From a virus (taxonomy: Duplodnaviria > Heunggongvirae > Uroviricota > Caudoviricetes), in IMG/VR virus record IMGVR_UViG_2939521961_000008: a stretch of DNA of 48,101 nt. One strand, 5' to 3'. Positions 8,777 to 19,667 of this stretch are shown piece by piece (positions within the stretch are counted from its first letter, which is position 1; every line of letters starts with the position of its first letter). The position numbers and the translations under genes were made by a program. The notes below the pieces were generated by a model that saw nothing but the letters and a program-made list of their open reading frames with translations, had not been told where the DNA came from and did no database searches.

Positions 8777-8818
8777 TGAACCGCCCCGGGTTTCCTGGAG
8801 AGTATTTTATCTGTGAAC

Positions 8819-9709
8819 TCAGGCTGCCAGATCATTATTTCCGATGGAAGCATAATAAGCTTTTTCTGCTTCTGCCGGAGGAATATGGCCCAGCCTTTCC
8901 AGCAATCGTCGATTGTTATACCAGTCCACCCACGTTAGTGTGGCCAGTTCCACTTCTGTCCGGTTTTTCCAGCTATTACGGTGTATTACCTCCGCTTTGT
9001 AAAGACCATTGATGCTCTCAGCCATCGCGTTGTCATACGAGTCGCCAGTACTCCCTGTTGATGCCAGTAATCCGGCTTCCTTAAGCCGCTGCGTGTAGGC
9101 CAGCGATACATACTGAGAACCTTTATCACTGTGATGGATTGTGCCGGACGGCCGACGGGCCCACAACGCCTGCTCCAGTGCATCCAGCACGAATGTTGTT
9201 TCCATGGATGATGAGACCTGCCATCCCACGATGTATCCGGCGAACACATCAATGATGAACGCCACATAAACGAAGCCCTGCCATGTGCTTACCCAGGTAA
9301 AATCAGCCACCCACAACTGGTCTGGACGTTCTGCCACGAACTGACGGTTTACGCGGTCGCATGCGGCAACGGCTTTCCGGCTGACGGTAGTGCGGACCTT
9401 TTTACCCCGGAGAACACCGGCAAGTCCCATAACTGCCATGAGACGTGCCACAGTGCATCTGGCCACTCTGATACCTTCCCGTAACAACTGACGCCAGACT
9501 TTACGCACACCGTATACCTGGTGATTTTCATCGTATACGCGCTGTATCTCTTTCTTCAGCCAGTCATCGTGCTGCGCACGGGCACTGCGTTTATCCGGAT
9601 GATGTCGCTGTTGCTGACAATGGTAATACGTTGACGGGGCAATATGCAGTTCGCTGCATACCGGTCCGACCCCGTACTGCTCACGCAGCTTATCCAGCAG
9701 TGGCATCAT
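8819..9709 (-). CDS. IS3-family transposase OrfB (DDE integrase domain), 296 aa
   Basis: DDE-type catalytic core (…WVADFTW…, …HSDKGSQY…, …DNAMAES…); overlaps orfA end. Confidence 0.9.
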
Positions 9710-10032
9710 TTTTTCCAGAGGCGGTCGAACTCCGCCTTCGCAAAATAAGCGGAAGCCTGGCGAAGGATATCGTTACTGCGGCGCAGTTCACGATTTTCAC
9801 GTTCCAGCTCTTTCAGACGCTGACGTTCAGCACTGGTGAGCCCACCATCACCGCCCCCGGTATCCCGCTCATGCTGGCGAACCCAGACACGCAGAGTCTC
9901 CGGCGTACAGCCAATCTTTGGGGCAATGGAACAAATTGCCGCCCACTGTGAGTCATATTCATCCTGACTTTCCAGAACCATACGAATCGCCCGCTGACGG
10001 ACTTCGGGGGAAAAACGAGTATTTTTAGTCAT
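9706..10032 (-). CDS. IS3-family transposase OrfA (HTH), 108 aa
   Basis: [22 protein letters not shown]... with leucine-zipper-like C-terminus; ends in GGAAAAAATGA where orfB begins (frameshift window). Confidence 0.9.
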
Positions 10033-10095
10033 CCTGTTTACCTCTTTCTCAGGGAGTTTAGTCTCCAGGATTTCCGGGGCGGTTCATACAGATAA

Positions 10096-14303: not shown

Positions 14304-15173
14304 ATGACCACTATTACCAAAGAACGTATTGAATTGTTCATTAAAAATCCGCTTGAAAACGGGCTTACCCGTGGTGAACAAATGGAACTGGCACGGATTG
14401 CGCTGGCATCGCTGGAAGCAGAGCCGGTGGCAAAGATTATAGCTCATTACCCATTAGGGGTTGACGTAGGCAAACAAAAATTTGTACAGGCCATTAGAGA
14501 GCTTCCTGACTTTGGCGGATATCTATTTGCCGCCCCTCCAGCGCCGATAGTGCCGGAAGAAATGTATTGGCAGGATGCGCCAGTTGAAGGCAGCAGCAAA
14601 GCGGCTGCATACGCTACAGGCTGGAACGATTGCCGCGAAGCCATGTTTCAGTCCGGAAACTTTCGGGAAAATAAAGATTCGTCAACCAATAATTTTCGGA
14701 AAATCCCGGAAGCGTCAACCAGCTCTCCGGTAACTCCGGCTCTTCTGCCTGGTGGTTTCACCATTGAGGAGGCGAAGGAATTACATGAAGACCTGGCACG
14801 CAGCCACATAAGCAAGGCCTTAAGTGGCGAAAAGATGAAAAAGAAAGATCGCGATGCTGATTTGCGCTGGATTCATGGCGTTATAGTTCAGGCAGCGTGG
14901 TTTGTAAAAGCATCACTGGAGCAGAATGCACTATCGGGCAACTATCCGGTAACTCCGGATAGTTGGATAAGCTGTAGTGAGCGAATGCCGGATACCAAAA
15001 CAGCCGTTCTTGTTGCCAGGGATTTTGGCAGGAAAGGTGACTGGCGAATGAAATGGGCGACTTACATCCCGGGGCATCCTGACGCTAATGATGGGTGGAT
15101 AATACCTGGTGCGTCGTGGATACCATCACACTGGATGCCTCTACCAGAACCGCCGCAGGAGGTGCGCCAATGA
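14304..15173 (+). CDS. hypothetical phage protein with C-terminal DUF551-like domain
   Basis: Strong RBS TAAGGAG; C-terminal segment SWISCSERMPDTKTAVLVARDFGRKGDWRMKW...GWIIPGASWIPSHWMPLPEPP. Confidence 0.6.
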   Translation: MTTITKERIELFIKNPLENGLTRGEQMELARIALASLEAEPVAKIIAHYPLGVDVGKQKFVQAIRELPDFGGYLFAAPPAPIVPEEMYWQDAPVEGSSKAAAYATGWNDCREAMFQSGNFRENKDSSTNNFRKIPEASTSSPVTPALLPGGFTIEEAKELHEDLARSHISKALSGEKMKKKDRDADLRWIHGVIVQAAWFVKASLEQNALSGNYPVTPDSWISCSERMPDTKTAVLVARDFGRKGDWRMKWATYIPGHPDANDGWIIPGASWIPSHWMPLPEPPQEVRQ

Positions 15174-15639
15174 ACTGGCCTGAAGCATTTGCAATTACAG
15201 GCGTTGCTATGGCTATCGCTTTTTTAGTATATGTTATTTGTCGGTGAGGGTAAAAACGTTCGCCGGGATTAACACCAAAGGAGGGAATATGTCGGATGAT
15301 ATATCACTGGCAATGGAAGGTGCGCTGGCTGTTGTTGCTGTTGTGGGCGTTTACTGCCTGGTTGTGTTTTTGATGGATCGACTAGGGAACTGAATTCATT
15401 ACGATATGGGAATTCCCATATCGGGTAAAAACGGTTTGCGGGAAAAGGAGAGTTAAGTAGAATTGCTGCGGGTGCTTGAGGCTATCTGTCTCAGGCATGA
15501 ACACCAAAAGGCAGATAGAGAAAAGCCCCAGTTAACATTACGCGTCCTGCAAGACGCTTAACATTAATCTGAGGCCCAATCTATGTCTCACAAATGTAGG
15601 TTAGCCTCTTACGTGCCGAAAGGCAAGGAGAAGCAGGCT

Positions 15640-15795
15640 ATGAAGCAGCAAAAGGCGATGTTAATCGCCCTGATCGTCATCTGTTTAACCGTCATAGTGA
15701 CGGCACTGGTAACGAGGAAAGACCTCTGCGAGGTACGAATCCGAACCGGCCAGACGGAGGTCGCTGTCTTCACAGCTTACGAACCTGAGGAGTAA
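15640..15795 (+). CDS. hokD: Hok/Gef-family type I toxin (HokD/RelF-like), 51 aa; overlapping mok-like frame begins at 15583
   Basis: MKQQKAMLIALIVICLTVIVTALVTRKDLCEVRIRTGQTEVAVFTAYEPEE: single TM helix plus conserved Hok periplasmic tail; longer overlapping ORF in the same frame. Confidence 0.8.
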   Translation: MKQQKAMLIALIVICLTVIVTALVTRKDLCEVRIRTGQTEVAVFTAYEPEE

Positions 15796-15863
15796 GAGAC
15801 CCGGCGGGGGAGAAATCCCTCGCCACCGCTGATGTGTCAGGCATCCTCAACGCACCCGCACTT

Positions 15864-15890
15864 AACCCGCTTCGGCGGGTTTTGTTTTTT
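15864..15890 (+). terminator. rho-independent terminator after hok
   Basis: AACCCGC-TTCG-GCGGGTT hairpin followed by TTTGTTTTTT. Confidence 0.6.
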
Positions 15891-15962
15891 CTGGTCGTTC
15901 TGGTTTACAATCCATCCGTCAGCCTGAACAACTGGCACCTGCTGCGCCAGCAGAGAAAACAG

Positions 15963-16241
15963 ATGGCGCACGATACCAAATTTTACAATTCGGATAACTC
16001 TGCCGCCCCTGCCAGCAGGCACGGGCGGCGTTCCCGCACTTTCAAATCTGACTGGTTCCAGCACCCCCCATGCACTGAAGAACAGGCCGAGTGGCTAATT
16101 CAGTGCTACCGCAGACACGGATACGAGATTAAGAAAGCCCTCAGCCTCGATTATCGTCACTGGATAATCTCCGTCAGGCTTCCTTACTCCGAACGACCAC
16201 CGCGTCCGTCCCGCACATTCCAGCAACGCATCTGGAGGTAA
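15963..16241 (+). CDS. hypothetical protein, 92 aa (start placed after the hok terminator)
   Basis: ORF track frame 15834..16241 contains the terminator hairpin, so the Met at 15963 is preferred. Confidence 0.45.
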   Translation: MAHDTKFYNSDNSAAPASRHGRRSRTFKSDWFQHPPCTEEQAEWLIQCYRRHGYEIKKALSLDYRHWIISVRLPYSERPPRPSRTFQQRIWR

Positions 16242-19261: not shown

Positions 19262-19428
19262 TTTTTTTGTTTACTGTTTATTAAAAATACTACTGCATGG
19301 TGAATCCCCCTGTGCGGAGGGGCAATCAGCAACCAGGTATATGTGATAATCGCGGATTCAGGTGCTGATACTGAATTCACCGGGAGGCACCCGGCACCAT
19401 GCAAGAAAAAGAATGTGCATGCAAACAT

Positions 19429-19452
19429 GCCCCTCTCCGGAGGGGCTTTTTT
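19429..19452 (+). terminator. rho-independent terminator-like hairpin
   Basis: GCCCCTC-TCCG-GAGGGGC followed by TTTTTT. Confidence 0.5.
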
Positions 19453-19667
19453 ATGGGTAAAAAATGCCCGAATGGGTTCGGGCAATAGCATGAGATACTG
19501 ATATTGTTGTGTTGTTATCGTGTGGATTTTAACCAGGGTTTATCAGGCTGCGCAACTGCGTGGCCTTTTTTCATTTCTTGGGCTGTAGTCCCCGTGTGTC
19601 ATTCAGGCTTCCGGACTACAGCCCACTCCATATCTGATTTAATACACTATCCCGGCCGGGAGGAATA

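Follow-up and report, generated by a model that had tools for sequence, protein, structure and literature searches.

A probable complete hok/mok/sok type I toxin–antitoxin cassette of the full-length “hokD” form in the nin-like region of a Rac-type lambdoid prophage

The virus record IMGVR_UViG_2939521961_000008 (Caudoviricetes), a stretch of 48,101 nucleotides (nt) analysed here in full and referred to as the window, carries at about positions 15435–15890 what is very probably a complete hok/mok/sok type I toxin–antitoxin cassette. It has the full-length form of “hokD”, is a close relative of the hokW-mokW-sokW locus of Stx2 phage 933W and Sakai prophage Sp5, and would operate by an R1-type mechanism. 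The locus is already known, as its coding sequence is annotated hokD (“type I toxin-antitoxin system toxin HokD”) in genomes identical here; work on the Hok family goes back to the 1980s, and experiments have been done on a prophage locus that is 94% identical. RefSeq, however, lists only the hok coding sequence, and we have now mapped the mok frame, the Sok RNA, the sok promoter, the fold-back inhibition (fbi) element and the editing motif to the base. An earlier reading made from the sequence alone (the sequence-only reading) had described a near-textbook Hok of 51 amino acids, an in-frame upstream mok frame from 15583 and a strong terminator at 15864–15890, and had named fbi and tac elements to be looked for in the hok leader; at the level of sequence these are borne out by the analysis below.

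First, the toxin gene itself is unambiguous. A 51-codon open reading frame (ORF) at 15640–15795 on the plus strand, preceded by a Shine–Dalgarno (SD) sequence, AAGGAG, at 15625–15630, translates in the ORF list as MKQQKAMLIALIVICLTVIVTALVTRKDLCEVRIRTGQTEVAVFTAYEPEE. The peptide matches Pfam PF01848 HOK_GEF over profile positions 1–42 of 42 with an E value of 1.2e-23 and 82.9 bits (cut-off 22), which, at the roughly 50 residues typical of the family, places it within Hok/Gef; it also matches PHROG 251, “MokW-like host killing” (E = 2.8e-33), and tblastn aligns it with K-12 HokD/RelF at 100% identity. A 2026 preprint (10.1101/2025.08.07.668861) employed the HokD peptide as a control for toxicity.

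Second, the toxin frame is embedded in a longer reading frame and a leader of the expected family. The mok frame, 70 codons at 15583–15795 on the plus strand, consists of MSHKCRLASYVPKGKEKQA followed by Hok, with which it is in frame and co-terminal in the ORF list. Its length equals that of 933W MokW (70 residues) and is similar to that of K-12 MokC (69 residues), and in-frame, co-terminal mok genes are likewise annotated for K-12 mokC/hokC and 933W mokW/hokW. The first three mok codons are overlapped by the 5′ end of Sok, as in mokC/sokC and mokW/sokW, and translation of hok is presumably coupled to that of mok. The leader, at 15470–15645 on the plus strand, matches Rfam RF01794 (“sok”) from model position 1 to 157 of 157 at 120.1 bits (gathering score 59; E = 2.8e-28), far beyond chance. 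Since the match has the orientation of hok and runs up to its AUG, the Rfam family evidently models the leader of the hok mRNA, the middle part of which is complementary to Sok; it also matches K-12 hokC and hokB, 933W hokW and four plasmid loci at 93–120 bits. In order, the leader comprises the tac 5′ end, the complement of the Sok terminator hairpin, the sokT/mok start hairpin and the hok SD hairpin. The sokT or mok translation-initiation hairpin (15571–15608, plus strand) is the third hairpin of the Rfam alignment and recurs in the minimum free energy (MFE) fold; the likely mok SD is GAGG at 15571–15574, the mok AUG sits in the stem beside the loop, and the loop, CUCACAA, includes a CUCA motif. 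We take this CUCA to be a YUNR-type motif, after the R1 system (Franch et al., 1999).

The ends of the transcript can be proposed from the same evidence. A full-length hok mRNA of about 421 nt would span 15470–15890 on the plus strand, its 5′ end being position 1 of the RF01794 model and its 3′ end the U-run of a Rho-independent terminator at 15864–15890, which has a 7-bp stem with 5 G-C pairs (15864–15881) followed by TTGTTTTTTC. The predicted fold of this RNA is highly stable (−167.3 kcal/mol, z −6.0), with its 5′ and 3′ ends paired. A putative weak hok promoter, read from the sequence at 15435–15463 on the plus strand, comprises a −35 box TTTGCG at 15435–15440, a 17-nt spacer and a −10 box TAGAAT at 15458–15463, the last ending 6 nt ahead of position 15470, where the mRNA would begin; 933W has the same promoter sequence, and the aligned −10 hexamer of hokC is TATAAT.

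Third, an antisense RNA can be placed on the opposite strand through near-identity to an experimentally tested homologue. Sok, about 71 nt and running from 15591 to 15521 on the minus strand, was transferred by alignment from the annotated sokW (AF125520 58664–58734). Its single-stranded 5′ tail, GUGAGACAU, is complementary to the first mok codons, and its remainder forms a long terminator hairpin (15577–15523) ending in UUUU; the predicted fold, a long hairpin with a U-tail, has an energy of −32.2 kcal/mol and a z score of −6.25. K-12 sokC and sokB occupy the equivalent position. The sok promoter, at 15598–15626 on the minus strand, has a −35 box TTGCCT at 15626–15621, a 17-nt spacer and a −10 box TAACCT at 15603–15598, with the start at G 15591, and the 45 nt upstream of that start differ from 933W sokW by one base. 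A like layout is found at sokB (TTGCCG-17-TAAGAT), and sokC has TTGACC-17-CACTCT, its −10 box being a poor match. Sp5 is near-identical to 933W. At the level of sequence, then, the window presents a predicted cis-antisense Sok with its own promoter and terminator. The sequence-only reading had expected both on the minus strand and had placed Sok at about 15550–15640; the promoter and the 5′ half of the RNA do fall within that interval, whereas the terminator hairpin runs some 30 nt beyond it. Mutating the promoter of sokW in Sp5 led to loss of its antitoxin activity (Takada et al., 2021; PMC8621323).

Fourth, the two ends of the hok mRNA are complementary in the manner expected of fold-back inhibition. 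The 5′-terminal element GGGUGCUUGAGG (tac; 15470–15481, plus strand), identified from the Rfam structure line and from folds, pairs in the MFE fold with the fbi element CCUCAACGCACCC (15845–15857, plus strand), which lies just upstream of the terminator; the helix comprises 12 bp with one bulge, and a duplex search returned −25.8 kcal/mol for it. Three mutually exclusive partners compete for GGGUGCUUGAGG, namely fbi, the heptamer AAGCCCC at 15523–15529, which is the tac stem partner in the Rfam consensus, and a neighbouring metastable hairpin, with duplex energies of −21.5, −10.7 and −17.6 kcal/mol, respectively. The pairing is maintained elsewhere through compensatory substitutions: in hokB as GGGUGCCUGAGA with UCUCAUGGCACCC, and in two R1-type plasmid loci as GGCGCUUGAGGC with GCCUGAAGCGCC, or with GCCGCAAGCGCU.

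Taken through the plasmid R1 model, these elements suggest the following sequence of events, for which we infer transcription, 3′ processing, translational coupling and toxicity in the host. A weak promoter would give rise to a stable hok mRNA of about 420 nt, whose 5′ end (15470–15481) is locked to fbi (15845–15857), permitting neither translation nor Sok binding. Slow trimming from the 3′ end would then remove fbi, allowing the 5′ end to refold and expose the mok start hairpin at 15571–15608. The short, unstable Sok, transcribed from its own promoter (15591 to 15521), would pair through its 5′ tail with this hairpin, blocking mok and hence coupled hok translation, and the duplex would be cleaved. 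Once the supply of Sok stops, Mok and Hok would be translated, and the 51-residue Hok would enter the inner membrane and collapse it.

An additional layer of regulation is possible by analogy with other hok genes. The motif TACG at Tyr47 of Hok (15778–15781, plus strand) is the one at which TadA is reported to edit A to I in K-12 hokD, recoding Tyr to Cys; the K-12 coding sequence is identical at this site. In a local fold prediction the A of the motif sits in a 9-nt loop, and the Tyr codon TAC aligns with the second Cys, so that the window gene has the sequence features of TadA-edited hok genes. Editing of hokC, hokD and hokE at this Tyr, giving Cys, has been described (PMC5630033; Bar-Yaacov, 2017), and the window hok may be edited to Cys likewise.

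Matches to the cassette region are widespread. The 501 bp at 15400–15900 are 100% identical to chromosomes of O26:H11 and O103 Shiga toxin-producing Escherichia coli (STEC) and of other E. coli; the 20 records listed all show 100% identity and hold 5–7 matching places each, and 103 records are at least 99% identical. Of 5426 complete E. coli genomes, 4942 have some match to this region, at a median of 2 places per genome, and since in about 3800 of them the match covers 80% or more of the query, the leader is usually present too. Matches extend to 79 phage records, annotated as host killer, MokW or HokD, and to 1456 plasmid records, including plasmids of about 96 kb annotated hokD. In a separate observation, PP818812.1 (deposited as Actinobacillus pleuropneumoniae phage vB_Apl-pPE4) carries the hok region at 99.1% identity, which would be unexpected in a phage of Pasteurellaceae and points to an E. 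coli prophage or to a wrongly assigned host.

As regards its setting, the window is colinear with positions 1,870,473–1,917,261 of E. coli O26:H11 str. 11368, save for a 1.3-kb insertion, and represents a Rac-type lambdoid prophage located beside ttcA. Its genes follow the order int, xis, ralR, recET, kilR, repressor, ydaT/U/V, hok cassette, DUF968, rusA and Q, after which come lysis, head, tail and nleG-type (DUF1076) genes. The cassette is co-oriented with the early-right genes and, as proposed at the outset, occupies a nin-like region, between the ydaU/ydaV-type replication genes and the DUF968, RusA and Q antiterminator genes. The left boundary first proposed, 15170, is by contrast some 260–300 nt too far upstream. 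Homology to hok begins at about 15427 in the comparison with 933W, or at 15470 in that with P1-like plasmids, and we therefore reject 15170–15427 as part of the cassette; this stretch occurs in 674 of the 5426 complete E. coli genomes versus 4942 for the hok region, the genomes listed for it include O157:H7, O55:H7 and O111:H11, and it matched no record in the phage collection.

What might such a cassette do for the prophage? We tentatively propose, with rather less than even confidence and by analogy with hokW-sokW, that Hok is released upon prophage induction and speeds lysis and phage release; maintenance killing and phage exclusion seem less likely than such help with lysis. The sequence-only reading had suggested a stabilising or abortive-infection-like module, but the one experimental study of a near-identical prophage locus favours a part in lysis and release on induction. 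In Sp5, HokW is toxic and located at the inner membrane, and SokW neutralises it in a manner partly dependent on RNase III and Hfq; upon mitomycin C treatment sokW RNA vanishes and HokW is then produced, RecA-dependently, and deletion of hokW-sokW halves phage release (Takada et al., 2021; PMC8621323). STEC genomes carry several such cassettes, and the effect on induction and lysis, and hence on the spread of toxin- and effector-carrying phages, has been tested for one of them.

Several points weigh against this picture, some against the cassette as mapped and others against its role in lysis. A scan of 15100–16000 for consensus promoters and terminators returned no minus-strand site at 15520–15640 and no hok promoter. 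The sok promoter was missed because its −10 box, TAACCT, matches the consensus at only 3 of 6 positions, and the hok promoter because its −35 box, TTTGCG, likewise matches at only 3 of 6; the annotated sokC promoter, judged by its hexamers, would also fail the thresholds of the scan. We therefore do not accept the scan as proof that Sok lacks a promoter, the region being one base from that of sokW. In a control for the fold-back pairing, 13 of 1977 random 230-nt pieces of the window (0.7%) bound the mRNA 5′ end as well as fbi does, so that the energy is moderately unusual and by itself weak evidence, and the argument for fbi rests on position and covariation. The MFE fold of a 3′-truncated mRNA (15470–15843) contains the 5′ metastable hairpin and not the tac stem of the R1 model, an outcome that speaks neither for nor against the activation step. 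Transcription of either strand is a prediction from the sequence. According to a summary of Pedersen and Gerdes (1999), hokA of E. coli C, hokB of K-12 and hokC of ECOR24, all with intact elements, reportedly gave neither post-segregational killing nor rifampicin activation. The homologue from which the lysis role is taken occupies the opposite end of its own prophage and faces the other way, and the prophage copy in the window, with an insertion sequence (IS) in a replication gene, may not be inducible.

The same considerations lend something to the idea that the cassette is intact and yet physiologically silent, a selfish passenger kept by prophage recombination and carriage and releasing too little Hok to matter, which we nonetheless regard as unlikely. 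The hok and sok promoters are both weak matches to the consensus, K-12 tolerates a copy lacking the whole leader, and the ydaU-like replication gene of the window prophage has been interrupted by the IS. Against this, all the regulatory elements are intact, the sok promoter is one base from a promoter shown to matter, the near-identical copies and roughly 3800 genomes counted above retain all or most of the region, and deletion of hokW-sokW has a measurable phenotype.

Stabilisation of the prophage by post-segregational killing, in which loss of the prophage would deplete Sok first and leave Hok to be made from the long-lived mRNA, is similarly improbable. R1 hok/sok classically acts in this way, the 933W record labels hokW “prophage maintenance”, and the requisite architecture of a stable mRNA and an unstable antisense RNA (fbi, terminator and Sok) is present. 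The chromosomal hok loci examined, however, reportedly gave no such killing (Pedersen and Gerdes, 1999, by the same summary); an integrated prophage present in one copy is lost when it excises, not when it mis-segregates; and Takada et al. found a pro-lysis role instead.

Two further proposals deserve still less credence. It is quite unlikely that the cassette acts in phage defence by abortive infection, whereby a lytic phage that shuts down host transcription would deplete Sok and provoke early killing by Hok: R1 hok/sok on a high-copy plasmid did lower the plating of T4 by 42% and make its plaques about 85% smaller, as cited in PMC8621323, but that effect was weak and needed high copy number, hok shows no enrichment beside known defence systems, and the flanking genes include no defence genes. 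Also doubtful is a scheme in which antiterminated early-right read-through silences the head-on sok promoter and so makes the cassette a lysis accelerator, while the diverged Sok tail insulates it from other STEC copies. With the cassette placed inside the early-right operon and pointing the same way, read-through on induction would run into the sok promoter, and because 4 of the first 9 nt of the tail are unlike those of sokW, the tail could insulate this copy. If true, release of Hok would be tied directly to early-right transcription.

The sequence upstream of the cassette has features of its own. Between 15170 and 15427 lie two very short hydrophobic ORFs with strong SD sequences, one of 25 codons (MNWPEAFAITGVAMAIAFLVYVICR; 15170–15247), whose ATG overlaps the stop of the DUF551 gene and which has AGGAGG upstream, and one of 34 codons (MSDDISLAMEGALAVVAVVGVYCLVVFLMDRLGN; 15289–15393), preceded by GGAGGG and annotated in RefSeq, as a hypothetical protein, where the shorter ORF is not. 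Neither gave a Pfam match above the family cut-off or a PHROG match, and PTR2 was dismissed as an identity for the shorter one at 18 bits, below the Pfam cut-off. A perfect 22-bp palindrome without spacer, CGATATGGGAATTCCCATATCG, at 15402–15423, directly upstream of the start of the 933W hok homology, could be a junction or a protein-binding site. Farther upstream, 14304–15173 (plus strand) is an uninterrupted ORF of 289 amino acids with a C-terminal DUF551 domain; in RefSeq the identical sequence of O26:H11 str. 11368 is split into two partial pseudogene fragments and a 62-residue DUF551 protein, which looks like an artefact of annotating a mosaic gene. At the other end of the cassette, a sub-threshold Rfam match at 15804–15885 (plus strand) to isrK, the Salmonella prophage small RNA (sRNA) IsrK, was rejected (27 bits, cut-off 50; E = 0.0025), as it probably reflects a chance likeness of two hairpins, the hok 3′ stem–loop and the terminator.

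Elsewhere in the window, the 1.3-kb insertion relative to O26:H11 str. 11368 occupies 8777–10085 and interrupts the ydaU-like replication gene; it carries IS3-family OrfA and OrfB frames on the minus strand (9706–10032 and 8819–9709) and an ALIL frameshift pseudoknot (RF01497, 9635–9751), and the prophage copy so interrupted may be unable to replicate. The RalA antitoxin sRNA (RF02694, 225 bits) at 1557–1735 on the plus strand lies beside the ralR toxin gene, the two forming a second type I toxin–antitoxin system of the same prophage. Downstream of the Q antiterminator gene are the sRNA STnc100 (19269–19458, plus strand; 148 bits) and the anti-GcvB sRNA AgvB (19459–19520, minus strand; 96.5 bits), at the site where Shiga toxin (Stx) phages carry stx; there are no stx genes there, and a nanS-p-type esterase gene comes next. 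Beyond the tail-fibre genes, at its right end, the prophage has three tandem DUF1076 genes (46101–48101), which we take to encode NleG-type type III effectors, making the prophage an effector carrier.

Set beside known systems, the window locus shares its logic most broadly with the R1-type plasmid loci, which combine a Hok/Gef peptide, an RF01794 leader (93–99 bits in two of them, L011 and L013), a Sok opposite the mok start and a 5′–3′ fold-back, and in which a 47-nt block around the sok promoter and the hok SD is about 87% identical to the window. R1 hok/sok (parB) itself is plasmid-borne and has a proven maintenance role. In a further R1-type locus (L012) and in hokB, mok is out of frame and ends inside hok (as DUF5431 in L012), whereas the window mok is in frame, which therefore marks the subgroup of hokC, hokD and hokW. 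Within that subgroup, E. coli hokC/mokC/sokC (gef) has a leader scoring 118 bits against RF01794, a 5′ end, GGGUGCUUGAGGCU, identical to that of the window, an in-frame, co-terminal mok and a Hok peptide 82% identical; SokC, at 59 nt, lacks the 18-nt palindromic hairpin extension of the window Sok, its locus has a different 3′ region and is a chromosomal one that adjoins nhaA instead of lying in a prophage.

Closer still is hokW-mokW-sokW of 933W/Sp5 (AF125520 58460–58734), with 93.8% nucleotide identity over 434 nt spanning promoter, leader, coding sequence and fbi. The two loci have in common a 70-residue in-frame Mok, a 51-residue Hok and a 71-nt Sok with the extended hairpin, and as far as the alignment reaches their hok promoter regions do not differ. 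HokW is 92% identical to the window Hok and only 44% to R1 Hok, and differs from the former in four C-terminal residues (…VFTAYEPEE versus …VFVDYESEK). The loci diverge further at Mok codons 2–4, in the Sok 5′ tail (GUGAGACAU in the window versus GUUCAGCAU in sokW), a difference that could limit cross-talk among STEC copies, and at the 3′ end, where the sequences part from about 15863 onward and 933W has a different terminator. Their placement differs as well, hokW lying near attR on the opposite strand and the window locus in the nin region along with the early-right genes.

The nearest relative in its coding part is hokD (relF) of the K-12 Qin cryptic prophage, whose Hok peptide, as noted, is that of the window. 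The two are 98.9% identical over 15626–15889, from the hok SD through fbi and the terminator, which is conserved, and the same genes lie downstream, namely a small ORF (rem in K-12), a DUF968/ydfU gene and a Q-type antiterminator. Upstream of 15626 the sequences are unrelated: K-12 has no hok promoter, leader, mok start, Sok RNA or sok −10 box but in their place the relBE operon, with the relE stop 58 nt before the break in homology. As K-12 is missing everything upstream of this point, the window holds the complete locus and K-12 hokD is a truncated remnant, such that the window locus displays the form of K-12 hokD before relBE replaced its leader.

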